IMG/VR virus record: IMGVR_UViG_3300025127_000009
Coordinates: 96,001 to 160,000 of that record
Strand: one strand, 5' to 3'
DNA length: 64,000 nt
From: a virus
Positions 3,448 through 45,748 of this stretch are shown here, piece after piece (within the stretch, counting starts at the first letter, position 1; each line of letters opens with the position of its first letter). A model generated the notes under the pieces. That model saw only the letters and a list, made by a program, of their open reading frames with translations, searched no databases and was not told the DNA's origin. The position numbers were made by a program, and so were the translations under genes.

Positions 3448-4457
3448 TTTCTTACCTCATCGATGTTTTTCCCCACAAAATCTGAAATCTCTTTGTTCAA
3501 GATTTCTAGGCTTTCTAAATAATCTTTCAATTCTTGTTTTGTGACCAAAGATTTAGAACTATCCATTGAATAATCTTTTTCTTCATTAAAGGGCATTGTA
3601 TATGAAGGTGAAACTGCAAGATATTTTTCTACTTTTCTAGTTCTCAGAGACTCTGAATCATTAATAAGGTCTTCGTGTATTTTTTCACCGGGCCTCATTC
3701 CAATTATCTCTATTGGTTTGCCAGAAATTTCAGAAAATATTTCTGCTAAATCTATCACTTTCATCGATTTCAACTCTGGAATCCAGGTTTCTCCTGTTTT
3801 ACCAAATTTCATAGAAGCATCTATCAAGTCAACACTCTCTTCTAAAGTCATAATATATCTTGTCATTCTTTTGTCTGTTACAGTTATTTTTTCTTTGTGT
3901 TCTGATTGATATTTGAACAAAGGTATAATACTACCTCTAGAATTTAATACATTTCCATATCTGACTGCGACAAAATTAATATTTAAGCCTAAATCACTAA
4001 CAGATGTCACTATTCTTTCCGCAATTGACTTACACATACCATAAACATTTATTGGGGAGCATGCCTTGTCTGTACTGACCATTAAAACCGTTTCTAAGTT
4101 ATTTAACTTCTCATGATTGTCTTTTACAACATCAACAACGTTTTCAATTCCAAGAATATTTGTTTTTATGCTCTCAAGAGGCGATTTTTCACATACATCA
4201 ACATGTTTGAGGGCAGATGCAAGTATTATGTGGGTTGGTTTGAAATTTAAAATTGCATCTTTGCATCTTTGTTGGTCTCTTATATCTCCAACAATAAATG
4301 AAAGATTTTCATGACCCATTTCATTCCTGATTGTCCAATGTTTGGATTCATCTCTAGAAAAAACACAAACCTTGTTACTCAAGATGTACCTTTTGATAAG
4401 CGTCTTACCAAGAGATCCAGTTCCTCCAAAAATTAGTATTTTTTTGTTTTTCATCAA
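3444..4457 (-). CDS. UDP-GlcNAc 4,6-dehydratase-like SDR (PseB/FnlA/CapD family)
   Basis: 'GGTGSLG', 'STDKA..P.NVYG..K', 'RYGNV..SRGS.IP.F', 'RPGEKIHE'. Confidence 0.9.
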   Translation of the reverse strand: MMKNKKILIFGGTGSLGKTLIKRYILSNKVCVFSRDESKHWTIRNEMGHENLSFIVGDIRDQQRCKDAILNFKPTHIILASALKHVDVCEKSPLESIKTNILGIENVVDVVKDNHEKLNNLETVLMVSTDKACSPINVYGMCKSIAERIVTSVSDLGLNINFVAVRYGNVLNSRGSIIPLFKYQSEHKEKITVTDKRMTRYIMTLEESVDLIDASMKFGKTGETWIPELKSMKVIDLAEIFSEISGKPIEIIGMRPGEKIHEDLINDSESLRTRKVEKYLAVSPSYTMPFNEEKDYSMDSSKSLVTKQELKDYLESLEILNKEISDFVGKNIDEVRK

Positions 4458-4509
4458 ATATTCCTAAAATAATCAATGAAATTATATCATAGGTATAAAA
4501 TAATTTTAA

Positions 4510-5406
4510 TTATAAGAGTTCAGTGTCTGGAGTTTCCCTGTATTTCTTTCTTGTTGACTTCATATACTCATAAACTCTTTTTCTTATTCTTTTTTGGTTT
4601 TGTTCTGAGTGATTTTCTATGTTAAATCTGTCATCCCTGTCTGATTCGTAATATTTCGTAATGAATTCTTCTACAAATTGCGCAGGAGTAAGTTCCTCCA
4701 TCCAATACGAATCCCCAGCCTTGGCTTCTCTCTCAAATTGACGAAAAGCCTCAATTAATCTGGCTTGTATCTCCTCTGTGGAGTCAACATATTCTTGAGA
4801 AGTTACATCAAATTGCTTTTTACCGCCCTTTGCCCTATACTGTTTAAAATTTGACCTAACAGAGTTAAGAAAGTGTGTTAGTTCATGATCTAGTACTTTA
4901 ACTAACTGCGATTTGTAAAAATTAAAGACTTCCGTGCCTTTATAAAAATTCTCATCTATTTTTCCTCTGTGGTAGAGATACATAACACCTTTAGAATCCA
5001 TTCCACCGCCAACATCGACTTGGCCGAATGGGTCTACTTGAAATAACAAGATTTTAAAGTTCTTCAAGGCGTTGCGAAAACTCACCATAGAATCAAAGAC
5101 TTCAAGAGAAAGGGGAACTTCCTCGCTGTATTTTAGCCACAGACTTTTAATTACTTCTTCTTTAAGTTCAAAAGCAACGGCCCAAGTTACAGTAAAATCA
5201 CCAATACCCTCTTTTCTGTTCTGCATTGATTCGTATTTGTCAAAAGGTGGCAAAAACCATCGGTCAGAAGCGGGCTGCGCAATTGAATATTTAAAATTTT
5301 CTATTTTTAAAACTCTTCTTACAAAAAAGGCTAAAATATCTTGATAAACATCATCTGTCTTTCTTTCGTTTAGATACTTTCTCCAATTTTCCATCAAAAT
5401 CTTCAC
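4510..5406 (-). CDS. W-leader protein with HExxH zinc-metallopeptidase-like motif
   Basis: N-term MKILMENWRKYLNE; 'DHELTH' plus downstream 'EEIQAR'. Confidence 0.6.
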   Translation of the reverse strand: MKILMENWRKYLNERKTDDVYQDILAFFVRRVLKIENFKYSIAQPASDRWFLPPFDKYESMQNRKEGIGDFTVTWAVAFELKEEVIKSLWLKYSEEVPLSLEVFDSMVSFRNALKNFKILLFQVDPFGQVDVGGGMDSKGVMYLYHRGKIDENFYKGTEVFNFYKSQLVKVLDHELTHFLNSVRSNFKQYRAKGGKKQFDVTSQEYVDSTEEIQARLIEAFRQFEREAKAGDSYWMEELTPAQFVEEFITKYYESDRDDRFNIENHSEQNQKRIRKRVYEYMKSTRKKYRETPDTELL

Positions 5407-5735
5407 TTATACACCTCTGCCAGACCTTCTTTTATAAGTAGTTGATTGATATTGACATTATCTACTAATATTTCGCCCAAACAGCGACCAAATTTGCCAA
5501 CACCTTTAGATTTTAAGATAAATTTTCCGTCAGAGGCCTCTAAAACGGCTTCTAAGCGACGTTTTGATGCTAGTCCAGCCTTCTTCTCGTCTGAATCTTT
5601 TGAGCGCGTCTCAGGGGCGTTAATTCCGAATAATCTAACACGTTTTTTGAGAGAAATACCAAAACCTAAGTCAATTTTGACGTCAATCGTGTCTCCGTCA
5701 ATAATTTTTATTAATTTGGCACGATACTCATACAT
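5403..5735 (-). CDS. Thermonuclease (SNase-like) family nuclease
   Basis: 'IIDGDTID', 'RVRLFGINAPE', 'GKFGRCLG', 'NINQLLIKEGLA'. Confidence 0.85.
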   Translation of the reverse strand: MYEYRAKLIKIIDGDTIDVKIDLGFGISLKKRVRLFGINAPETRSKDSDEKKAGLASKRRLEAVLEASDGKFILKSKGVGKFGRCLGEILVDNVNINQLLIKEGLAEVYK

Positions 5736-6510
5736 TTTCCGTGATTTTTACGGTTAAATGTGATGATGACATCATTTTATCGTAGGATAAGACCTTAAGG
5801 GTTGTAACAATTTCTAGAATTCCATTGTTTCGAAGTATTTTGAATGCTAAATTCTCTGGAGAGTAGATTCCTTCTCTCTCTAGGCCACTTACCCTCATGT
5901 TTTTGGTTTTTTTCTTGAATTTTTCACACAAACTGTAGACTAATTTGTATTCCTTCTCCGCAAAGAGGTCTTGAATCTTTTCTACTTCGTCATTCAGGGC
6001 ACTTGCCTTCTTCTCTGCAGTGAGAAGATCCAATTCAACGTCATCTCTCGATGGTTCTTCAAGCCATTCACCTGTCTTGATAGAGTAGAGGCCCAAAGAT
6101 TTGTGTTCTTCGTTGATATCTTGAAAATAAATTTCAACTTCGTGACCATTTATTATAATTGTGTGGTTTTTGTTCCACAAAGTCTTCTGAGAGTTAAGAT
6201 ATTTACCCACAAGTTCATCATTTTGATCAACATCGGCAAAATCTAGCATAATATGAAGGTCTATGTCAGACAAATTGTGCCAATTATATGACGCAATTGA
6301 TCCGGTGATCGTTATATCTTTAATTTTGCCTTCTAGGTTTAGTTCTGCAATGATATCTTCGGCAATTTTCATTAATTTTCGTCTGACGTTAACGTCTAGA
6401 CGGTCTCTAAACCAAAACTTTGGATGAAGAGTGTCTTTAACTTTCATATCGGAAGTGTCAAACTCTTCTTCTTTAAGAAAATTTTTCCAATTTTTAGCCA
6501 AACTGCTCAT
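5728..6510 (-). CDS. Pol-beta superfamily nucleotidyltransferase with W-leader
   Basis: 'ITGSIASYNWHNLSDIDLHI' (GS..DxD); N-term SLAKNWKNFLKEEE. Confidence 0.7.
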   Translation of the reverse strand: MSSLAKNWKNFLKEEEFDTSDMKVKDTLHPKFWFRDRLDVNVRRKLMKIAEDIIAELNLEGKIKDITITGSIASYNWHNLSDIDLHIMLDFADVDQNDELVGKYLNSQKTLWNKNHTIIINGHEVEIYFQDINEEHKSLGLYSIKTGEWLEEPSRDDVELDLLTAEKKASALNDEVEKIQDLFAEKEYKLVYSLCEKFKKKTKNMRVSGLEREGIYSPENLAFKILRNNGILEIVTTLKVLSYDKMMSSSHLTVKITENV

Positions 6511-6919
6511 CTTTTACTACCTCAATCGCTATTTTTTCGAATTTTGAAGGATTTTGTATCTTCATAACGTCTACAAATGCGTGATCAGTGTGCTCATTGC
6601 TTAAAATTATGTTTCCTTTTTCATGAACTGATCTAAAATATGCAATATTTTCTTTTTTTGTATACAACGTTGCTCGAAATATTTCTAAACCAGTTTCTTC
6701 TTCAACTTCTCTCTTCAATCCATCAAGCATGCTTTCACCTTCCTTAATATGACCACCAGGTAAATCCATTTCACCGGCATATTTTTCCATATAATTTGAT
6801 CTTTTCAAGAAAAGAACATGATTGTGCTTGTTTAAAAGAACTAATTTAACAACTTGCGACGTATCTGGAGATTCATTTTCTAACAAGTACTGTCTCCACT
6901 CTTTAAAAATCGATTTCAT
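6494..6919 (-). CDS. Nudix hydrolase with W-leader
   Basis: Nudix box 'PGGHIKEGESMLDGLKREVEEETGL'; N-term SIFKEWRQYLLENE. Confidence 0.9.
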   Translation of the reverse strand: MKSIFKEWRQYLLENESPDTSQVVKLVLLNKHNHVLFLKRSNYMEKYAGEMDLPGGHIKEGESMLDGLKREVEEETGLEIFRATLYTKKENIAYFRSVHEKGNIILSNEHTDHAFVDVMKIQNPSKFEKIAIEVVKDEQFG

Positions 6920-6933
6920 AAGACAAAAGCCTC

Positions 6934-7125
6934 CTAGATGTCTATAATTATAACTCTAGAAGAAACTTCTGAATCTTCTTCGTCAACGTCATGCGACATT
7001 TCAGGCACTTCTAAATCAATGTGTAGTGGAATCTGGCAGGGTGATTCTTCCTCTTCCGGAAGATCCCACAAATACCAGTCATCAAAATTTAGAAAATGTC
7101 CCATACATTTAATTAGGGACTCCAT
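6934..7125 (-). CDS. Small acidic hypothetical protein
   Basis: GGAG RBS; tight packing with neighbours. Confidence 0.5.
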   Translation of the reverse strand: MESLIKCMGHFLNFDDWYLWDLPEEEESPCQIPLHIDLEVPEMSHDVDEEDSEVSSRVIIIDI

Positions 7126-7436
7126 TTTATATTCTCCTCTATGTTGTCACTAATTCTATTTCCATTTATCCACAAGGAACATACCGGCCCTTCTATTGGG
7201 TTAATAGTTCTTAGTAAATAAACAGCCTCTTCCACCTTATTTAACTGAATTATTCTTATTTTATCAAAAGCACCTTCTGCTTCATCAAAGAAAAAACCGT
7301 ATTTTTTTAAATATTCAGTGTAATTTACTGGGTTGTGTATGACAACGACAACATCTTCGTGATGAAGAAGAGAAATATAATTGCCTATTAGTTCATCTAG
7401 ATCAACATGATAGCATATGTGATCTATTCTTCTCAT
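7113..7436 (-). CDS. Hypothetical protein
   Basis: ATGA-coupled to upstream gene. Confidence 0.55.
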   Translation of the reverse strand: MRRIDHICYHVDLDELIGNYISLLHHEDVVVVIHNPVNYTEYLKKYGFFFDEAEGAFDKIRIIQLNKVEEAVYLLRTINPIEGPVCSLWINGNRISDNIEENIKWSP

Positions 7437-7930
7437 TTGGAGTGTTTATCAGCAACTGTTTGGCTAGCCCATGCGTTTGGTTTAAGTTTGCATTCTAGTC
7501 CATATCCTGATACGTATCCTTTAAGCATCTCCGAATGCTTTGATGTACCATTGTTTGACGCAAATGGTGAGACGTCTAAGTGAAGTTCTATGTTTGATGG
7601 TTCAATATCGTGATTTGTCATTAGTAATTCAGCAACACGGACAGATCTTCTTGTTTCCTCCGTAATTCTTGTTACTAAATTTTTATAACTTGAGGGACTT
7701 AGATTTTCTTTAAAGAAAAAATATCTACCTCTTGTGCCATTTCCGTGAAGACATATTGTAGTGGCAAAACAAACTTTGCCTTTTGAGGGAAAAGAATCAG
7801 ATCCAATATAGATTGTTGCACCTTTTTCTAATCTTTCATCAATAATGTTAAGAATTTCTTTAAAGGTAGTCTTTTTTCTAGAGCCAGTATACCATATAGT
7901 GCTTAAGTATTCTGCGTTATCCTCTAACAT
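7433..7930 (-). CDS. RNase H-like YkuK family protein
   Basis: 'IYIGSDS', 'RITEETRRS', 'IELHLDV', 'KPNAWASQTVADK'. Confidence 0.75.
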   Translation of the reverse strand: MLEDNAEYLSTIWYTGSRKKTTFKEILNIIDERLEKGATIYIGSDSFPSKGKVCFATTICLHGNGTRGRYFFFKENLSPSSYKNLVTRITEETRRSVRVAELLMTNHDIEPSNIELHLDVSPFASNNGTSKHSEMLKGYVSGYGLECKLKPNAWASQTVADKHSK

Positions 7931-8126
7931 AAAAATTGCCTCTCTTCTTAAGTACTACGTTAGTTTTAATATAATTATCTTTATTTTTAATTTCTACATC
8001 GTAGTGACCATCTAAGAGGCCTCTTCTTTCTTCTTCTTTCATCATATGTCTCATAGTGAGGTATATGCTTAACAAAGTGATGATAGAACCCATCATCATT
8101 CCAATTCCTAGAAGTTCCATGTACAC
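7917..8126 (-). CDS. Small membrane protein
   Basis: AGGAG RBS; N-terminal hydrophobic helix. Confidence 0.55.
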   Translation of the reverse strand: MYMELLGIGMMMGSIITLLSIYLTMRHMMKEEERRGLLDGHYDVEIKNKDNYIKTNVVLKKRGNFYVRG

Positions 8127-8176
8127 TCCTTTGTGATGGATCTAATTATAGCATATATCTTTTAGAAAAAAAAGAC

Positions 8177-8983
8177 TTATTTTTCAAAAATTTCAAGGAG
8201 AGCCATTTTTACATGTTTTCTAATTGTGTCCAAGTCCCTTTCTGGCAAATCAGACGTGTTGTCGTTATAGTAAAGTGCATTATCAATATCTGTCATGATA
8301 CTTTCAATTTTATCTTCCGTTGTATCTGCCTGGAATGTTTCAAATAAGTTTTTTAAGAACTCAACGCCTTTCTTCGCTGCGCCTTTCATTTGCCTACCAG
8401 CATCCTCTGCGTCATCTAGAAAAGCATCAACATTTTTCATATATTCAGAATCGGCATAGATATCTTCTTCTTCCTCTTCTTCAGGTTCTTTTTGACCAGG
8501 AGATTCGCCTGTTAACAAAAATTTAATTAATTCTTCTTTTGTAACCTCTTGGCCCATTGGAAAGTCTTCTGATGTGGCACCAAGCATTCTTAGCGACATA
8601 TCTCTGCTTGATCGATCTAGACCTGTAATTCTTTCTGACTCTAGGTGTTCGTTTAGCGCACGAAGTTCCATGTCTAAGAATCTATCGCTTTGAGCCAACT
8701 TTTTCTTTTGTGCGTCGGTCATTTTACCTTTGACAACCATTTGTTCTATTTTGGCTTTAGGTGCGGCTTCCGCACCGCCAGTTGGAGCCATAGGAGCCAG
8801 TACAGCAAAGGCTAATGCCATCGCTTTAAGTGCATTGCTTGATTTTGATGATATTTTTTGCAAGATCCCTTCCTTTACTAATTGTTCGTAGATTATATCT
8901 TGATATAACTGCAAGTTCTCTTCTGTTATCATATCATCATCAATAAATGATTTCCAGTTTTCCATTATAATTTTGTGTTTCAT
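8177..8983 (-). CDS. W-leader protein with internal hydrophobic segment
   Basis: Start moved to MKHKIIMENWKSF (AAGGA RBS just after the upstream stop); 'ALKAMALAFAVLAPMA'. Confidence 0.65.
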   Translation of the reverse strand: MKHKIIMENWKSFIDDDMITEENLQLYQDIIYEQLVKEGILQKISSKSSNALKAMALAFAVLAPMAPTGGAEAAPKAKIEQMVVKGKMTDAQKKKLAQSDRFLDMELRALNEHLESERITGLDRSSRDMSLRMLGATSEDFPMGQEVTKEELIKFLLTGESPGQKEPEEEEEEDIYADSEYMKNVDAFLDDAEDAGRQMKGAAKKGVEFLKNLFETFQADTTEDKIESIMTDIDNALYYNDNTSDLPERDLDTIRKHVKMALLEIFEK

Positions 8984-8993
8984 GTTAATGTCC

Positions 8994-9509
8994 TTACCAT
9001 TTTCTACAGGACCAGTATCTTGCTTTTGTTTTTGGTCCTGGATTGTCACAATTGTGTCTAGCCCTAAATGATTTTCTACGCTTTGGGTTGGACTTCTTAA
9101 TTCTCATGTTTGGATCACCAAAGTTAACCTTTTTTATATTTTTAGTTTTAGGGTCTTTTACAAATACTTTAAACTTTTTTACGTCACCTCTCATTGGCTT
9201 GTTAAGTTTAACTTTGCGGCCACGATATTCTGCTTCTACAACAACATCGTCCCAAAATTCTAGGTCTTCCTCTACAACAGAACCATCTTCATATAGTGCA
9301 TCTGAGATATAAAAATAACTTTCATCTAAGTCATCAATATCATAATTATCGTAATCTTCGTCCTCGAATTCATCATCATCATCTTCTTCGTAATCAAATT
9401 CACGGTCATCTTCATAATATCCTGGAGGTGCCTTAGCAGATCTAGGATCACTCATCTTAAGCCCTTCAGTGAATTTTCTCCAGTTTTCTAGTATAAGTTT
9501 GATACTCAT
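8994..9509 (-). CDS. W-leader protein: acidic N-half, basic conserved phage domain
   Basis: MSIKLILENWRKFTE; 'AEYRGRKVKLNKPMRGDVKKFKV..RRKSFRARHNCDNPGPKTKARYWSCRKW' resembles a family I recall from large-phage hypotheticals. Confidence 0.75.
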   Translation of the reverse strand: MSIKLILENWRKFTEGLKMSDPRSAKAPPGYYEDDREFDYEEDDDDEFEDEDYDNYDIDDLDESYFYISDALYEDGSVVEEDLEFWDDVVVEAEYRGRKVKLNKPMRGDVKKFKVFVKDPKTKNIKKVNFGDPNMRIKKSNPKRRKSFRARHNCDNPGPKTKARYWSCRKW

Positions 9510-9865
9510 TTTTTCTTCCTCTTGGATTTACTTTGTTTAACGTTTTTAGCCTTACCCCTACGATTTGGGTTTGGATCTTCCTTTCTTTTCTTTTTGGCCC
9601 TCTTATCTCTTTCTTTTTTGCTTAATCGTGCGCGATCATCTGGATCTCTGCAATAAGGTTTTGTTTTCTGGCCAGGTTGTTTAGCACAAGGTTTACCGTC
9701 GTATTTACCGCCTGCCTGGACCCATCCACCACCTTTAAACCAGTCTCTGAGGGAATATCCCTTACTTTTAGCGCCTTTGCCGTCTCTTCTGCCGCCCTTG
9801 CGCTTCTTTTCAAGATATAATTTAATTTCTTCCTTGATGATCTCTTCTATCTCTAAATCAATCAT
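9506..9865 (-). CDS. Highly basic putative virion/DNA-binding protein
   Basis: Acidic leader 'LEIEEIIKEEIKLYLE' then K/R-rich body with 'SLRDWF..WV..KPC..KPYC'. Confidence 0.7.
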   Translation of the reverse strand: MIDLEIEEIIKEEIKLYLEKKRKGGRRDGKGAKSKGYSLRDWFKGGGWVQAGGKYDGKPCAKQPGQKTKPYCRDPDDRARLSKKERDKRAKKKRKEDPNPNRRGKAKNVKQSKSKRKKK

Positions 9866-10719
9866 TTCTTTTTCCTCATACGCTGGGTTTTCTTTTTCGA
9901 AGCCTCTTTTCTTTTTTTAGCATAATCATATGCTCTTTTTAATCTTGCTTTTACCTTTGGATCCTTGGCTCTTTTATATGCTGCACGAACACGTTGATGT
10001 ACAAGATTAATTATTTGTGATTGTCTTTTATGGGACTTACTCTTAAAACTAGCCTTAGAAAAGGTATCTCTGATATCAGAAACAGAACTAAATTTAACAC
10101 TTACAGTATCTTTTGGATTTTCATCTGTATAAAGTCTTCTGCTAGAACCTTTTGGCTTTTTACCTGTCCCTTTTTTAGGATCTTTGCCTTCTTCTGCTTT
10201 TACACAATTTCTATATGTGCGACCAAACATTTTTTTTGTTTTTCTGGTTGGGTGCGTTTTATAACCCTTTTGGCAACGTTCCGCTACTTTTTTAGCGGTA
10301 GCAGTAGAAATAGCGTATCGCTTCTCATCTGGCATATCAGGGTTATCTCTTTTCAATGCCGCAGCAATTTCTTTTTTCTTTTTATATTCAGGTTTGCTTA
10401 GTTTTCTTTCTTTGAAATTTTTTTTTTCGTTTCCGGGGGTGGCATCTTCATTTGTTTTTTTGGATTTGTTTCCCCAATTTTTCGCGCCAACTTTTCTGCA
10501 CTTTACGAGTGCACCGGAGGCATATGCGCTAGGCCACACAGCATAACGCGATTTTACCTTGTGATAGCAAGCATCACGCTTGCCTGTCTTTTTCTTCTTC
10601 TTTTTCTTTTTGCGCTTCTTTTCTTGGAGAAATTCTTCGATTTCTTCGGTGATGATTTCGTCAAGATCCCCGGCGAAGCCGTCCAAAATTTTGCGCCAAT
10701 TTTTTGTTGTAGTGTCCAT
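9862..10719 (-). CDS. Basic multi-module W-leader protein
   Basis: MDTTTKNWRKIL; modules 'DACYHKVKSRYAVWPSAYASGALVKCRK', 'CQKGY..NCVK', 'RRLYTDENPKDTV' separated by Glu. Confidence 0.75.
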   Translation of the reverse strand: MDTTTKNWRKILDGFAGDLDEIITEEIEEFLQEKKRKKKKKKKKTGKRDACYHKVKSRYAVWPSAYASGALVKCRKVGAKNWGNKSKKTNEDATPGNEKKNFKERKLSKPEYKKKKEIAAALKRDNPDMPDEKRYAISTATAKKVAERCQKGYKTHPTRKTKKMFGRTYRNCVKAEEGKDPKKGTGKKPKGSSRRLYTDENPKDTVSVKFSSVSDIRDTFSKASFKSKSHKRQSQIINLVHQRVRAAYKRAKDPKVKARLKRAYDYAKKRKEASKKKTQRMRKKK

Positions 10720-10760
10720 ACTCTATAAATAGTATGTTTTGCGAGAAAAAGAAATAACAA

Positions 10761-11189
10761 CTACAGGTCTAAAAAGTAAAAGGCTATTTCTTTGACGCCT
10801 ACATACCAGCCATCATCTCCGTTAGGATAAGATATAAGCATTGTAGGATAGGTTTCTACCCCTACTAACCAGGCTAAATGAGAAGCCCACTTATCTTCGG
10901 CATTAACCCAGACAACTTTGTCATCTAAGCCTCTATGTTTGATAAATTTTTCTAATTGTTTGCAGGGACCACACCAGGGGGTAGTAAATATGACTCTAAC
11001 GGGATTCTCCTTATCGGAGAGCAACCGATCTAGTTCATGTTCACTAACGTATTTGCCTCCAGCCCGATGAACTACCTCACCATCGTAGGCTACAGAGATT
11101 TCGGCTTTTCTTTTTTGTACAGGCCCACCACAGGCCACAACTAACGATAACATAAAGAATCCAATTAAAGCGTATAGAACGTACCTCAT
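10761..11189 (-). CDS. Thioredoxin-fold lipoprotein
   Basis: Lipobox 'LVVAC'; active site WCGPC; GGAGG RBS. Confidence 0.8.
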   Translation of the reverse strand: MRYVLYALIGFFMLSLVVACGGPVQKRKAEISVAYDGEVVHRAGGKYVSEHELDRLLSDKENPVRVIFTTPWCGPCKQLEKFIKHRGLDDKVVWVNAEDKWASHLAWLVGVETYPTMLISYPNGDDGWYVGVKEIAFYFLDL

Positions 11190-11262
11190 AATAACTACCT
11201 CCTAGAGGTAACTATCGGGCAAAGGTAGGATAATGTAGGATATTATTAAACGCGGATATTTT

Positions 11263-11592
11263 TTATCGCTGAGAAATGCGATCAATTGCGAATCGGCCAA
11301 CGACCGCATCGGGCGCGGAGGCTTTATCGCGAGTTTGGATAGCGAACATTTCCCCGTCATGGGAGACCCTGAGAGGATCCCTTCCTCGCATTGGATCGTA
11401 ATCGGCCTTTATACCTTGGCCTTGAAGCGCATCGGCTAGATCGCTTAGTTTACGTATCTCATCTCTATACCCCTGGCGGACCATATTCCTCAACACTTTC
11501 ATCAGATCCGGGGCAAGTTCATCGCCTTCTTGCAGGCTTGTGTCCTCTACTTCATTAACAAACTTTTTCCACTCTTCAAGAATCTTTTTCAT
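11263..11592 (-). CDS. W-leader hypothetical protein
   Basis: Start moved to MKKILEEWKKFVNE. Confidence 0.65.
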   Translation of the reverse strand: MKKILEEWKKFVNEVEDTSLQEGDELAPDLMKVLRNMVRQGYRDEIRKLSDLADALQGQGIKADYDPMRGRDPLRVSHDGEMFAIQTRDKASAPDAVVGRFAIDRISQR

Positions 11593-11767
11593 TGCTGGAA
11601 TTCTCCTTTCCAAAATTATTTAGATAGTTTTCTAACGCCTTCTGGATTTTACCCTCAATCACAATGTGGTGTTCTTCGCTAATCATATCGATCATCTCTG
11701 TGCGATTTCTGGCTGCTTCCCAAGGCGTTAATTTGTTGGCATCTAACCCAACGCAAATTATGCACAT
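11576..11767 (-). CDS. Small hypothetical protein (MCIIC...)
   Basis: ATG lies 1 nt after the stop of the Cys-rich peptide. Confidence 0.55.
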   Translation of the reverse strand: MCIICVGLDANKLTPWEAARNRTEMIDMISEEHHIVIEGKIQKALENYLNNFGKENSSNEKDS

Positions 11768-11768
11768 T

Positions 11769-11864
11769 TTAGCAACACCCAGCCTCGCATGCGCAACATC
11801 CACAACAACAGCAACAGTGCTTAGCATCAAACAACTTAACTAATTTGTGTAGTAATCTCTTCAT
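11769..11864 (-). CDS. 31-aa Cys-rich micropeptide MKRLLHKLVKLFDAKHCCCCCGCCACEAGCC
   Basis: Hand-translated; AGGAG RBS 9 nt upstream; next ORF starts 1 nt after its stop. Confidence 0.7.
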   Translation of the reverse strand: MKRLLHKLVKLFDAKHCCCCCGCCACEAGCC

Positions 11865-11977
11865 CTTTAAAATCTCCTAAAATTTTTCTGGGTGTTTTTT
11901 AGTACACATTTTAAATAGTTTTGCTTATCCCTTATATCTCGGAATTTTCTTAGCCGCATCGTAAACGTCCTTAGCCG

Positions 11978-12673: not shown

Positions 12674-12709
12674 ATAAAAAAAAATAATGGGGGGACATTG
12701 CGTCCCCCC
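12674..12709 (-). terminator. Rho-independent terminator
   Basis: GGGGGGAC-5nt-GTCCCCCC stem followed by a T run on the minus strand. Confidence 0.8.
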
Positions 12710-22107: not shown

Positions 22108-22349
22108 CATTTTTTTAAATTTTGTTTAGTCGCCAGGACTATATCCTTGTCATCAGCGGGCCACCAATTAGCGTTATTAACCGCCGCTGTCCAACTGCCA
22201 AAGTCTTTAACATCGTCAAGCCATACTATCAAGAACTCTTCAATATTACCATCGGCCCACTGTTCTCTTGATTTGGTCACCAGGCCCATTGCACCCGTGC
22301 CACAATAGTGATCATGAGGCTTGTATATCACTAGATCGCCTACCTTCAC
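22104..22349 (-). CDS. MKxGDLV mini-protein
   Basis: GTG start in the junction repeat. Confidence 0.7.
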   Translation of the reverse strand: MKVGDLVIYKPHDHYCGTGAMGLVTKSREQWADGNIEEFLIVWLDDVKDFGSWTAAVNNANWWPADDKDIVLATKQNLKKC

Positions 22350-22542
22350 TGATAACCTCCAGTTTATCTTCTTCGTGCCACATTACACTAGAGTGAACTG
22401 TATTCCACCTTACGCGAACGTTTCTATGGTTGTCAGGGCCGTGAAGGGGACTAAACTCTAAGACTATGCCAACGTATTGATTATGTACACGGTCTGATAT
22501 ATACCTGCTCTTCTTGTACGCTATCAGGTCACCGACTTTCAC
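22312..22542 (-). CDS. MKxGDLV mini-protein
   Basis: GTG start VKVGDLIAY; contains EVISEGR near the C-terminus. Confidence 0.7.
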   Translation of the reverse strand: MKVGDLIAYKKSRYISDRVHNQYVGIVLEFSPLHGPDNHRNVRVRWNTVHSSVMWHEEDKLEVISEGRRSSDIQAS

Positions 22543-22732
22543 TGATAACCTCAAACTCGCTTGGCTTATGTAGTTCGGGCTTGCGACCAGGATAAGCCAC
22601 TTTTATCAATCTTCCTGTGCCTAATATGCCGCCTGAATCTGCATCTGTACTTAAGCAAATTGCTACGGCTCTTTTTTGTTGGTGCAACTGTAACATGCCC
22701 CAGCGCTTTACTACTAAATCACCTTTTTTCAT
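22529..22732 (-). CDS. MKxGDLV mini-protein
   Basis: MKKGDLVV; ends EVISESR. Confidence 0.7.
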   Translation of the reverse strand: MKKGDLVVKRWGMLQLHQQKRAVAICLSTDADSGGILGTGRLIKVAYPGRKPELHKPSEFEVISESR

Positions 22733-22842
22733 CTCTTAAACTCCCAATACGCTACTGATAACGCTATCAACATTAGTACACCAAGGATTACATACTCGGT
22801 GAATCCGTCTATCTGCATACTAACCATTGCGGCTTCATTCAT
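22729..22842 (-). CDS. 37-aa single-TM peptide (not in ORF track)
   Basis: MNEAAMVSMQIDGFTEYVILGVLMLIALSVAYWEFKR; GAGG RBS; ATGA-coupled. Confidence 0.6.
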   Translation of the reverse strand: MNEAAMVSMQIDGFTEYVILGVLMLIALSVAYWEFKR

Positions 22843-22945
22843 TTTTACCTCTGTATCCCCAATACAAACTACCAAAGAAGAGGAAGTCTGCTATAGCACC
22901 GTAGAGTAGCGGAGCGTCTAATATATACTGAGTTAAAGTAAACAT
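22835..22945 (-). CDS. 36-aa hydrophobic peptide (not in ORF track)
   Basis: MFTLTQYILDAPLLYGAIADFLFFGSLYWGYRGKNE. Confidence 0.5.
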   Translation of the reverse strand: MFTLTQYILDAPLLYGAIADFLFFGSLYWGYRGKNE

Positions 22946-37869: not shown

Positions 37870-37911
37870 TTAGTGTACCCTTTTTCAACTAATTAGTGCT
37901 ATTTTATAAGA

Positions 37912-38425: not shown

Positions 38426-38763
38426 TAGCGAATTTGAATATAAAGTATTAAAAGTGCGAGAAAGAGACAAGAAAGCGTTTTGGGATTCAACATAGACTCT
38501 CCCAATATTGTCCATGTTAATGCGCCAAAAACTACCACCCCAACTGCTTGAGCAATAAATCTTGCGGCCCACACGGATTCTGAATCAACCCATATTAGAC
38601 GCCAACCATACCAAAATGCAATAGAACAAGGAATCCCCATGACCATCGCGGAAATCACTGGCTTATCTTGCCACCACTCAGATAAAAATTGAGAATTTAA
38701 TTGAAACCAGGCTAAGGTTTGGCCAATGAAAAAAAATATAATTGCTTGTATTAGGTTGCTCAT
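38422..38763 (-). CDS. Four-TM small membrane protein (DMT/SMR-like)
   Basis: Four hydrophobic helices; 'LGES'. Confidence 0.6.
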   Translation of the reverse strand: MSNLIQAIIFFFIGQTLAWFQLNSQFLSEWWQDKPVISAMVMGIPCSIAFWYGWRLIWVDSESVWAARFIAQAVGVVVFGALTWTILGESMLNPKTLSCLFLALLILYIQIRY

Positions 38764-39107
38764 TGTAAAGACAAGTGTATTCCTCTATCTTTAAGTTCTT
38801 GCTTCGATTCTACGAGGGCTATAACACACTTGCTAACATTTAAAACCTCGTCTGTTTCTAATGAATACAAATTTTCAACATCTAGTTTCTTAGTTTTTAT
38901 TAGTTTGCTTAGATATTCCAGAAACAAATATGAATTTGAATACAACTTAGTTATCTCAAAAAAATGTTCTTCAGAATAATTGTTTTGGCCAATAAAGTGA
39001 TCAAACATTAATCTTTTGCAGAAATCCATATTCTGCTTGGCCATCTCTGAAAATGCTTTTGCTTCTGCAGGAGATACCTTTACACCAAATTTAGTTTTCT
39101 TATCCAA
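38760..39107 (-). CDS. Hypothetical protein
   Basis: Operon packing. Confidence 0.55.
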   Translation of the reverse strand: MDKKTKFGVKVSPAEAKAFSEMAKQNMDFCKRLMFDHFIGQNNYSEEHFFEITKLYSNSYLFLEYLSKLIKTKKLDVENLYSLETDEVLNVSKCVIALVESKQELKDRGIHLSLQ

Positions 39108-39492
39108 TTATTCCTCTCCCCCAAAAATGTTTGTTCTTTCTATCATTAGTAACTAGTAAAGCCAAAATAAGAATTTTATCTTCCTCTTTTTTAATTTGTG
39201 CTTTATACAGTTCTAGTTTGCCGAATTTAGGAACTGGCTTCTTTTTTTGATACTTTTTTCTTGGAGGAGGTTGATTAATATAATCAACACAACCTTCGAT
39301 TAATTCATTGTCTGATGTATTTTCTGGAACTTCATCCTCGACTAGGATTCTGGCTGCAACAACCCACTTTTTAGATGCAAAGCCTGGAATATCCCAAAAC
39401 ATGCTCCCATGATATCTGCCTGATTTTGTTTTTGCCTCTAGGTGCCCCAAAGACTCATACTCTGACATAGGTATAAAACTACATTTAAACAT
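39100..39492 (-). CDS. Hypothetical protein
   Basis: Operon packing. Confidence 0.55.
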   Translation of the reverse strand: MFKCSFIPMSEYESLGHLEAKTKSGRYHGSMFWDIPGFASKKWVVAARILVEDEVPENTSDNELIEGCVDYINQPPPRKKYQKKKPVPKFGKLELYKAQIKKEEDKILILALLVTNDRKNKHFWGRGIIG

Positions 39493-45046: not shown

Positions 45047-45748
45047 TTAATCTTTTTTGTCTTTGTTAACTTTTCTCTTAAGTGCTTCCTGAATTTTCTT
45101 TGCAACACGACTTGCAATTCTTTCTGCAACTTCTTCTAATTCTTCTTGATCGACCTCTTCTAGGGGTTCTTCGCTGTCAATCTCATCCAAAGACTCCTCG
45201 TCTAAAGGCTCTTCTTCATCAAGATCCTCATCACCCATGTCCATATCGTCTTCATCGCCGCCGTCAAGAGCAGCAAGAATTTGGTCTAGGACATCTCTAG
45301 CGGTCCTCAATGAGGCGGCATCAGACTCGGGAACATCAACTTCGATGTCGTCACCGTCGTCCATGTCATCTTCCATGTCCATGTCGTCGTCGCCCATGTC
45401 CATGTCGTCACCCATTTCATCTTCAGCAGCGCCGCGCATGTCGCCTTCGTCAACCTCGTCCTCGTCTTCGGCTGCGCCACGCATCATTCCCTCATCAACT
45501 TCGTCTTCGTCTTCGGCTGCGCCTCTCATAGCGCCTTCCTCAACTTCGTCTTCCTTCTCGCCACGCATTGCGCCTTCGTCAACTTCTTTTTCATCGTCTT
45601 CTGCAGCGCCGCGCATACCCTCTTCGATCTCCTCGTCTTCTTCAAAGACGTAAGACTTCTCATTAATAGGCCTTAAGCCTGCGAGTTTCCAAAACCTACG
45701 GGTTGTGGTCTCGTTCAAAATTGCTTTCTTGGTTTTCTTATCAGACAT
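45047..45748 (-). CDS. Very acidic repeat protein, scaffold/core-like
   Basis: Five 'EGxMRG..EDE' repeats; 'LNETTTRRFWKLAGL'; C-terminal helix. Confidence 0.6.
   Translation of the reverse strand: MSDKKTKKAILNETTTRRFWKLAGLRPINEKSYVFEEDEEIEEGMRGAAEDDEKEVDEGAMRGEKEDEVEEGAMRGAAEDEDEVDEGMMRGAAEDEDEVDEGDMRGAAEDEMGDDMDMGDDDMDMEDDMDDGDDIEVDVPESDAASLRTARDVLDQILAALDGGDEDDMDMGDEDLDEEEPLDEESLDEIDSEEPLEEVDQEELEEVAERIASRVAKKIQEALKRKVNKDKKD

Follow-up and report, generated by a model that had tools for sequence, protein, structure and literature searches.

A Trp-centred N-terminal leader on unrelated proteins of an uncultured marine phage is probably a capsid-targeting propeptide of the T4 kind

Eight proteins encoded in a 64,000-nt stretch (the window) of the 192,597-bp (193-kb) genome of an uncultured marine phage start with the same short leader built around a Trp residue, and we consider that this leader is probably a T4-type propeptide for capsid targeting, in a version specific to this lineage. 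The leader occurs at N-termini only, and its end is likely the cut site of the T4-type head protease of the phage.

The general pattern of the eight leaders was x(5-9)-[EK][NE]-W-[RK]-x-[FY]-[LIV]-x-E, in which the last Glu (W+6) varies, and the Trp was residue 8 in six of them and residue 10 in two. As the original prediction had claimed from the window sequence, all eight N-termini were present at their predicted starts on the minus strand (Table 1), and their bodies were indeed unrelated, comprising a NUDIX hydrolase, a Pol-beta-type nucleotidyltransferase, basic proteins of phrog_727 and phrog_7595, and others without a family. A strict regular expression applied to the six frames of the whole genome gave nine matches, eight of which were the N-termini in the window, and a looser motif gave seven N-terminal matches where the rate of internal matches would predict 0.17 (Poisson P = 6e-10). 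A ninth carrier outside the window, a 729-aa protein beginning with MSKDTKLIFENWNKYQ... (genome positions 3999-6188), is encoded between the prohead protease and scaffold genes. The motif had also been described as usually followed by Glu, and this residue occupied W+6 in five of the nine local leaders; the remaining four had hydrophobic-x-Glu 7-19 residues farther downstream, and their missing W+6 Glu counts against a T4-type reading. The tag was absent from replication proteins, so the equal frequency there that the prediction had named as counter-evidence was not observed.

Table 1. Features of the leader cluster and related elements in the window (a slash marks the putative cut position)
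Feature	Position	Strand	Details
HExxH-family leader protein, 298 aa	4510..5406	-	GTG start; MKILMENWRKYLNE/RKTD...; unknown fold
Staphylococcal-nuclease homologue, without leader	5403..5735	-	Inside cluster
Nucleotidyltransferase leader protein, 260 aa	5728..6510	-	MSSLAKNWKNFLKE/EE...; Pol-beta/NTP_transf_2-like, phrog_36119
NUDIX hydrolase leader protein, 141 aa	6494..6919	-	MKSIFKEWRQYLLE/NE...; PF00293, E = 1.9e-14, residues 23-131
Leaderless cluster gene	6934..7125
Leaderless cluster gene	7113..7436
Leaderless cluster gene	7433..7930		RNaseH-like
Acidic leader protein, 268 aa	8177..8983	-	MKHKIIMENWKSFIDDD..ITE/E; ATG at 8983, 11 nt past the stop of the upstream gene; family search: none found
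Leader protein, 171 aa	8994..9509	-	MSIKLILENWRKFTE/G...; acidic middle, basic C-terminal phrog_7595 domain
Second-leader protein, 119 aa	9506..9865	-	MIDLEIEEIIKEEIKLYLE...; very basic (pI ~10.5), phrog_727 body
Very basic leader protein, 285 aa	9862..10719	-	MDTTTKNWRKIL..., then second-leader copy LDEIITEEIEEFLQE/KK; phrog_727 body
Promoter-like box	10726..10733	-	ACTATTTA; 14 nt upstream of the 9862-10719 gene start
Leaderless cluster gene	10761..11189		Thioredoxin-like lipoprotein
Leader protein, 109 aa	11263..11592	-	MKKILEEWKKFVNE/VE...; family search: none found
Promoter-like box	11912..11919	-	ACTATTTA; cluster head, 89 nt upstream of ORF 11576-11830
Terminator-like hairpin	12689..12709	-	9 pairs (7 G-C) and T run; separates upstream small-gene region from leader cluster
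Leader protein, 778 aa	35533..37869	-	MSYSTRAWKKFLND..LLTE/AR
Promoter-like box	37890..37897	-	ACTAATTA; 28 nt upstream of the 778-aa leader gene

Among relatives of the phage in IMG/VR, a search pattern from which Glu14 had been left out yielded 62 non-redundant carriers with bodies in 45 unrelated clusters, arranged in arrays of up to 14 genes. Their 14-residue consensus was MKLL[LF]ENW[RK]KFLxE, with Trp at residue 8; Glu was present at W+6 in 51 of the 62 and Leu at W+4 in 49, and no conservation was seen past Glu14. For the 260-aa nucleotidyltransferase, the alignment with homologues in other lineages of phages starts only at about residue 22. The view of the leader as a portable tag was also borne out: besides its spread over unrelated bodies, it is missing from one NUDIX homologue (in relative G001) and has been exchanged for a second leader on one body. 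The leader is an amphipathic helix. Because its charges recur every two to four positions (K2, E6, R9, K10, E14) and no hydrophobic core of 10 or more residues is present, a Sec, Tat or lipoprotein signal peptide was rejected; by contrast, the lipoprotein encoded within the cluster has a real signal with an uninterrupted hydrophobic core.

The second, acidic leader, an N-terminal sequence of about 22 residues with the form MKITKxQLKQIIKEE...LxE, was confirmed in the 119-aa protein and inside the 285-aa protein, where the prediction had placed it, and it recurs at N-termini in this genome and in relatives. Every homologue of the 298-aa HExxH protein carries a leader, which is of the first type or, in relative P0009, of the second, and L12 and E14, just before the conserved ERKTD, are invariant, as are H174, E175 and H178. 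The L-x-E was retained when the second leader replaced the first on the homologous HExxH body. In an AF2 model of the 298-aa protein, the pLDDT was about 35 for residues 1-13 and averaged 75 in the body. Of the ten longest contigs that the second leader alone brought up, nine encode an S77 protease, a co-occurrence with a high base rate because many large marine phage contigs are T4-like.

The genome encodes a Peptidase_S77 (gp21-type) prohead protease (PF03420, E = 2e-28), a gp23-type capsid protein (PF07068, E = 4e-72) and a gp20-type portal (PF07230, E = 7e-81); the head genes are in T4-like order, with a coiled-coil protein at the scaffold position. A bS21 ribosomal protein gene lies within this head module, and GroEL is also encoded in the genome. 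In the capsid-protein alignment, the T4 column FLTE/AE, which we take to be the cut site of gp23, reads ELLRE/AS here, QLLKE/AS in G001 and QIVSE/AN in phage immuto. T4-family proteases cut after Glu (PMC5694885), and the T4 tag MKTYQEFIAE ends in I-A-E (PMC8442874), with residues 4 and 7 governing targeting and residues 8 and 10 processing (PMC9026906). The leader ends in hydrophobic-x-Glu, the shape of the prohead-protease cleavage motif.

Carriers lie directly beside the protease gene in relatives L082, L103 and L112, and in G001 a 14-gene leader array with 4-nt overlaps, including three paralogues of the 778-aa protein, abuts genes just upstream of those for the terminase, portal, protease, scaffold and capsid protein. 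Head loading is, however, disfavored by the large distance between leader cluster and head module here and in most relatives, and by the small number of real carriers within 10 kb of the protease (80 loci). In four genomes, a promoter-like box, ACTA[AT]TTA, was found 12-90 nt upstream of sheath, tube, scaffold and baseplate genes. It also stands upstream of the first leader-array gene in G001, G002 and G004 and of two leader genes here, and was absent upstream of the genes for polymerase, helicase, primase and ribonucleotide reductase. This distribution suggests that the leader genes may be co-regulated with virion genes, although the box occurs upstream of a small number of non-structural genes as well (such as IscU-like and PhoH/PIN-like genes), which counts against head loading. 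So do the leaderless genes inside the cluster (nuclease, RNaseH-like, lipoprotein), owing to which the cluster is not purely cargo, and the absence of the tag from the closest cultured relatives searched (immuto, Mel-JY01 and RM378).

Most carriers have a single domain and a length of 80-400 aa, and some are very basic, with a pI above 10. Their domains include ART-PolyVal, S-AdoMet lyase, NTP_transf_2, the poly(A)-polymerase/CCA head domain, NUDIX, HD, HAD_SAK_1, NT5C and metallopeptidase-like domains. In T4, the ADP-ribosyltransferase Alt is packaged and injected, and such domains have been predicted as injected cargo (PMC5512222). Several of the cargo enzymes could, however, act equally well as ordinary cytoplasmic proteins, which speaks against head loading.

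If the leader is a propeptide of this kind, its amphipathic helix would dock late-made proteins on the scaffolding core of the assembling prohead through a hydrophobic face formed by L4, W8, F11 and L12, and the gp21-family (Peptidase_S77) prohead protease would cut after Glu14 of F-L-x-E, with a second possible cut after Glu6 of L-F-E. The freed cargo, made up of single-domain enzymes and very basic proteins that can be swapped for one another, would remain in the head with the DNA and enter the next host alongside it, and the second leader would do the job of the first. By analogy with T4, we infer that the tagged proteins bind to the core, are cleaved, are present in virions and are ejected. 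Tentatively, it is also possible that an abundant uncultured marine phage lineage (about 160-195 kb) uses the two interchangeable tags to pre-load a fast-changing arsenal of stand-alone enzymes for co-injection with its DNA. This arsenal would include SAM lyase, ADP-ribosyltransferase, NUDIX, nucleotidyltransferases, RNA-repair phosphatases and HExxH proteins. IMG/VR contains 480 contigs with a close relative of the protease.

The leader could instead be a docking helix for another partner or compartment, such as the tail or baseplate, the phage GroEL, a membrane or a hub protein, with no head-loading propeptide involved. Its amphipathic nature, a putative late co-regulation that would suit any virion part or late function, the location of most leader clusters away from head genes, and the GroEL gene all agree with such a role, but we regard it as unlikely since it leaves unexplained the conservation that ends exactly at hydrophobic-x-Glu, the retention of this sequence across the swap of leader types, and the carriers in protease-flanking slots of several genomes. 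A role in timing or stability, in which the leader would act as a degron or protease-recognition tag and limit the lifetime of accessory enzymes without packaging, appears quite improbable: in all systems studied, the S77 protease belongs to the prohead core (PMC5694885), and the tag is also carried by very basic, internal-protein-like proteins and by one head-module gene, even though SAM lyase, NUDIX and nucleotidases are cytoplasmic in other phages and the phage does encode a Glu-specific protease.

A shared start could also arise at the RNA or DNA level, as a translation-initiation enhancer, possibly linked to bS21, or as a linker at which cassettes are exchanged by recombination. This would agree with the AT-rich sequence of the leaders and their position at gene starts in tightly overlapped arrays, and the bS21 gene of the head module would fit the former role. 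However, nucleotide identity was 75% over the 42 nt of the leaders versus 32% in the 24 nt upstream, and synonymous codons vary (TTG, CTT, CTC, CTG and CTA for Leu; AGA, CGG, CGA and CGC for Arg) while the residues are fixed and the single-codon Trp is invariant. Selection therefore acts on the peptide, and we consider an RNA- or DNA-level origin very improbable. Paralogy does occur among a few carriers (the phrog_727 bodies and the 778-aa family), as would be expected if the shared start were a remnant of ancestry, or mere chance, with no function of its own. This explanation is effectively refuted by the N-terminal enrichment in each of five genomes (Poisson P of 1e-9 to 1e-14), by the number of unrelated body clusters, and by the N-terminal position of about 32 of 39 pattern matches in IMG/VR.

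The capsid targeting sequence (CTS) of T4 internal proteins was reportedly described by Mullaney and Black in 1996. It is carried by IPI, IPII, IPIII and Alt and removed by the gp21 prohead protease (PMC9026906, PMC3012670). Both systems use a short N-terminal tag on unrelated proteins (10-19 residues long in T4, and 14 or about 22 in this phage) that starts with MK, has aromatic residues in its middle and ends in hydrophobic-x-Glu, and in both a gp21-family protease is accompanied by a gp22-like scaffold and a gp23-type capsid protein, with basic proteins and an ADP-ribosyltransferase among cargo whose gene sets vary between relatives. On the other hand, the present tag, known from sequence alone, is built around an invariant Trp and has no similarity to MKTYQEFIAE past the general shape, which counts against a T4-type reading, and the strict leader pattern was absent from the T4 genome. 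It also has many more clients (arrays of up to 14 genes, and 45 types of body across the lineage), mostly enzymes, and comes in two interchangeable types. In phiKZ, 201phi2-1 and SPN3US, inner-body and ejection proteins have propeptides that a gp21-related protease removes by cleavage at (S/A/G)-x-E (PMC5694885, PMC10052503). These phages share with ours the related protease, cleavage after Glu (here predicted) and N-terminal propeptides inferred to target the prohead, but their propeptides mostly exceed 100 residues without a single short common motif, and P3 is a small residue rather than Leu or Ile. Encapsulin cargo-loading peptides resemble the leader in its proposed role, as short conserved tags through which unrelated enzymes enter an HK97-fold shell. 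They differ from the proposed system in being usually C-terminal, in not being removed, and in involving no protease, DNA or delivery to another cell. Polyvalent proteins of phages and conjugative elements contain domains predicted to be injected with DNA (Iyer et al., 2017; PMC5512222). The carriers have the same domain repertoire (ART-PolyVal, NUDIX, metallopeptidase, nucleotidyltransferase and RNA-repair HAD), but polyvalent proteins fuse many domains in a giant polypeptide whereas the carriers are separate small proteins, each tagged; membership in that class (2-15 disparate domains per polypeptide) was rejected on account of their mostly single-domain makeup and size.

Injected phage proteins are normally found only through virion proteomics of cultured phages. 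Since their action precedes all phage gene expression, they are the first to be considered for roles in counter-defence and host takeover. With a tag to mark them, metagenomic data could be used to predict which proteins uncultured marine phages inject. Such a tag would represent an alternative to giant polyvalent proteins, with many small tagged cargo proteins in arrays that gain and lose genes, and it would draw attention to new enzyme families that merit testing, the HExxH and 778-aa families among them. A second, unrelated packaging tag for engineering capsids as protein carriers would follow, as with the T4 tag. If the two tags do pre-load such an arsenal throughout the lineage, sequence data could directly reveal the injected proteome, and probably with it a set of counter-defence enzymes that act in the first minute, for thousands of phages that resist cultivation.

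All eight N-termini listed in the original prediction were found where it had placed them. When aligned on Trp, they follow x(5-9)-[EK][NE]-W-[RK]-x-[FY]-[LIV]-x-E, with Trp as residue 8 in six and as residue 10 in two of the eight. A six-frame regular-expression search of the whole genome gave nine matches, eight of which are these N-termini. A ninth carrier, a 729-aa protein (MSKDTKLIFENWNKYQ..LDE) with the prohead protease on one side and the scaffold protein on the other, had been missed because it is encoded outside the window. With a looser motif, seven N-terminal matches were obtained in this genome where the internal rate predicts 0.17 (P = 6e-10), and the N-terminal excess in four related contigs had P values of 1e-9 to 1e-14. 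The bodies that follow the leader are indeed unrelated, as had been claimed: they are a NUDIX protein, a Pol-beta-type nucleotidyltransferase, two phrog_727 basic proteins, a phrog_7595 protein, and four proteins without a family. As expected from the predicted packaging role, the motif occurs in none of the replication or nucleotide-metabolism proteins of the genome. The Glu at the sixth residue after Trp (W+6) is missing in four of the nine local leaders, which have I-T-E, L-D-E/L-Q-E, L-T-E or L-D-E further downstream instead. The products of two adjacent genes of the leader cluster have pI values above 10. Leaderless genes within the cluster encode a staphylococcal-nuclease homologue, an RNaseH-like protein, and a thioredoxin/glutaredoxin-like protein with a lipoprotein-type signal (..LSLVVACGG). 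The T4 tag has been used to package foreign proteins, staphylococcal nuclease among them, into T4 heads. The adjacency of the cluster to the glycan island was rejected as meaningful because arrays (tandem leader genes) sit at other places in relatives.

Four long contigs (G001, G002, G004, and G005) come from the same lineage, their core proteins being 45-65% identical, and contain leader clusters of 5 to 14 genes. The lineage is common, since a close relative of the protease is present in 480 IMG/VR contigs. A degenerate DNA pattern for L-E-N-W-[RK]-K-F-[LF] detected 39 sites in 33 IMG/VR contigs, and about 32 of these sites have an ATG four to nine codons upstream and none further up. After deduplication, 62 carriers with 45 body clusters (defined at BLAST E < 1e-4) gave the consensus M-K-L-L-[LF]-E-N-W-[RK]-K-F-L-x-E. 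The W+6 residue, which was absent from the search pattern used to collect the carriers, is Glu in 51 of the 62, and no position beyond it is conserved. Complete relatives found via the protease have two to five strict-pattern matches each, often clustered, against zero or one for control patterns. The nearest cultured phages, i.e., Flavobacterium phage immuto (capsid protein 38% identical), Microcystis phage Mel-JY01, and Rhodothermus phage RM378, are all distant, and the strict motif, searched as a DNA pattern for the intended motif only with no further difference tolerated, was not found in these three, in Maribacter phage Molly, or in T4. With immuto as the closest phage in culture, Flavobacteriia are the most probable hosts of the lineage. 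A megablast search with the leader cluster gave no match among GenBank phages, the 729-aa protein and the nucleotidyltransferase as single IMG/VR queries retrieved their own genome or nothing, and none of the relevant papers among those searched contained the motif strings. Synonymous sites under the leader vary freely, both here and in relatives; across the leaders of one 14-gene array, the 42 nt show 75% identity with nearly fixed residues, while identity over the upstream 24 nt is only 32%. Judged from these substitution patterns, the leader is conserved as a peptide, not as nucleic acid. The consensus leader also contains an extra hydrophobic-x-Glu (L-F-E, residues 4-6; Glu in 55 of the 62 carriers), and the scaffold and capsid proteins begin with MSSLLE and MSVLEKLTE, respectively. 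Taken together, these N-termini hint at trimming at several sites.

The second, acidic leader proposed in the original prediction was also real. It begins a 119-aa basic protein, lies behind the first leader inside the protein starting at window position 10719, and begins a further protein of 67 aa. G001 has six N-terminal copies and zero internal ones. The pattern Q-L-K-Q-I-I-K-E-E matched at least 120 IMG/VR contigs; among the matches listed, an ATG stands exactly 4 or 6 codons ahead of 169 of 179 sites, the consensus reads MKITK[SQE]QLKQIIKEE[LI]xxVLxE, and in 82 of 145 distinct sequences the first hydrophobic-x-Glu past residue 16 has its Glu at residue 21 or 22. An S77 protease is encoded by nine of the ten longest contigs among the matches listed, among them each of the four with a completeness of 90% or more, a co-occurrence that is supportive and not decisive because many large marine phage contigs are T4-like. 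A tblastn search of GenBank phages with a 30-residue second-leader query gave nothing meaningful.

In several families, homologues differ in the type or the presence of the leader. Homologues of a 298-aa HExxH protein have the first leader followed by a conserved ERKTDxLY in all but one (P0009), whose N-terminus, MQIKRSQLVKLIRESLRGNRLLLE|RKTD, is of the second leader type; throughout this family, L12 and E14 do not vary. The NUDIX protein has about 10-14 N-terminal residues more than its G001 homologue, which lacks the leader and is encoded just beyond the G001 array. For the nucleotidyltransferase, the alignment with homologues from cyanophage S-CRM01, Maribacter phage Molly, and Lak megaphages starts no earlier than about residue 22, and the two N-termini that were read (S-CRM01 and Molly) differ from the leader. 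Pfam domains among the carriers include ART-PolyVal, S-AdoMet lyase, NTP_transf_2, poly(A)-polymerase/CCA head domain, NUDIX, HD, HAD_SAK_1, NT5C, and metallopeptidase-like domains. When the HExxH family was modelled with AF2 (pLDDT 75), the first 13 residues scored about 35, a value that fits an exposed tag and is no proof of one. Foldseek found no match with E < 0.5 for this model in the PDB, and a single-sequence AF2 model of the NUDIX carrier was uninformative (pLDDT 39).

Prohead proteases of the T4 family cleave after Glu (PMC5694885). The T4 tag MKTYQEFIAE ends in I-A-E, and internal proteins are cut once beside it (PMC8442874); residues 4 and 7 serve targeting and residues 8 and 10 processing, and an Asp at position 10 prevents processing yet leaves targeting intact (PMC9026906). 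The first leader ends in F-L-x-E, and its conservation ceases at the final Glu. In the alignment of capsid proteins, the column of FLTE|AE in T4 gp23, which we take to be its cut point, reads ELLRE|AS here, QLLKE|AS in G001, and QIVSE|AN in immuto. The gp23-type capsid proteins of these four phages also share an invariant N-terminal LLNKW.K..LLEG (alignment A2) that resembles LL.ENW.K.L.E of the leader. The leader may mimic the scaffold-contacting part of the capsid-protein propeptide.

The record is 192,597 bp long, with the window at bases 96001-160000, and carries nearly all of its genes on the minus strand. Its products include a large terminase, a portal of the gp20 type, a prohead protease of the T4 gp21 family (Peptidase_S77), and a major capsid protein of the gp23 type. 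A coiled-coil protein takes the scaffold position, and at genome 1-14 kb the genes for portal, protease, scaffold, and capsid protein are ordered as in T4. The replication genes are unlike those of T4 (DnaE-like polymerase and DnaB), and GroEL is also encoded. A gene for a bS21-like ribosomal protein lies between the protease and scaffold genes. The two record ends carry diverged copies of one gene pair (MGKRRKRLTM..., MSKLGRYSADRKKVES...), each preceded by a promoter-like box, and are not identical terminal repeats. The leader cluster is far from the head genes in this genome and in most relatives. In one compared locus (L082), an orthologue of the 729-aa carrier occupies the same slot between protease and scaffold; in another (L103), the protease gene has a second-leader gene directly before it and a first-leader gene directly after it, and in a third (L112), a second-leader gene immediately precedes it. 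The G001 array of fourteen leader genes, many with 4-nt overlaps, abuts genes just upstream of those for terminase, portal, protease, scaffold, and capsid protein.

Intergenic DNA is enriched in the 8-mer ACTA[AT]TTA (often ACTATTTAT). This box is located 12-90 nt upstream of genes for sheath, tube, scaffold, and baseplate wedge (G000, G001, G002, and G004), and it is also seen before the first array gene in G001 (30 nt), G002 (36 nt), and G004 (32 nt), before two leader genes of the present genome (at 14 and 28 nt), and before several second-leader genes. It was not found upstream of polymerase, helicase, primase, and ribonucleotide reductase genes, and it also precedes a few non-structural genes. 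As a candidate promoter for late or structural genes, the box is dissimilar to the T4 late promoter TATAAATA, which was not enriched before structural genes and has just two of its nine coding-strand copies upstream of a gene. A strong terminator-like hairpin has the cluster on one side and the upstream small-gene region on the other; within the cluster, sigma-70-type promoters and terminators were at chance level. Three genomes encode a protein of about 200-233 aa that has a third conserved N-terminus, ..LNE(T/N)T(T/I)RRF(W/M)KLA.., with the same or a near-identical box before each copy (CTATTTAT here).

Coordinates of the features described in the text
Feature	Sequence	Position	Strand
Leader cluster	window	4510-11592	minus
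Staphylococcal-nuclease homologue	window	5403-5735	minus
Second-leader protein, 119 aa	window	9506-9865	
Thioredoxin/glutaredoxin-like protein	window	10761-11189	minus
Terminator-like hairpin	window	12689-12709	
Box ACTA[AT]TTA	window; also many genome sites and loci L044-L062	10726-10733, 11912-11919, 37890-37897	
Third N-terminus protein	window	45047-45748	minus
Third N-terminus protein	G001	22298-22891	
Third N-terminus protein	G002	38493-39113	
729-aa carrier	genome	3999-6188	
Prohead protease	genome	7516-8118	
Second-leader protein, 67 aa	genome	18560-18763	
bS21-like protein gene	genome (L001)	6859-7083	minus
End-copy gene pairs	genome (L001, L007)	33-914, 191634-192493	
Capsid-protein segment	L001	1046-2809	
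Shared N-termini, immuto	L065	4730-6030, 287-1045, 10454-10675, 12340-12567	
S-CRM01 g127	L067	180-1037	
Shared N-termini, Molly_1	L068	2899-3696, 6090-6599	

Immuto and Molly_1 have shared N-termini of their own. Near its head genes, immuto has MADNFNLRSFLTENKLT and MENFDLKKFLVENKLT just before the terminase, MKKSQLRQIIKEAL and MKKSQIVKAVQEVLEE, and MENNFDIHKWQAKFLKE beside the protease, all of which may be lineage-specific tags of a cultivable phage. In Molly_1, the nucleotidyltransferase homologue and another protein both begin with MNLK(T/S)LVE(T/S). Synechococcus phage S-CRM01 g127, two genes before the nucleotidyltransferase homologue, has the T4-tag-like N-terminus MKLFNQFFKEAE.

By analogy, the leader is closest in function to the T4 capsid-targeting sequence. 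Both systems have a short shared N-terminal tag, a protease motif at the tag end, and T4-type head genes. However, the leader has a different motif with no sequence homology to the T4 tag, its clients differ in number and enzymatic nature, and two interchangeable tags and tandem arrays are found here. T4 Alt, an ADP-ribosyltransferase, is packaged and injected. T-even internal proteins are a diverse set with only the targeting sequence in common (PMC3012670), and polyvalent proteins, predicted to be injected with the DNA, have the same domain repertoire as the carriers (PMC5512222). The leader is thus best read as a head-loading propeptide, which we consider fairly probable; that the full chain would extend to injection of a counter-defence toolkit is a more tentative proposal, conceivable but somewhat doubtful.
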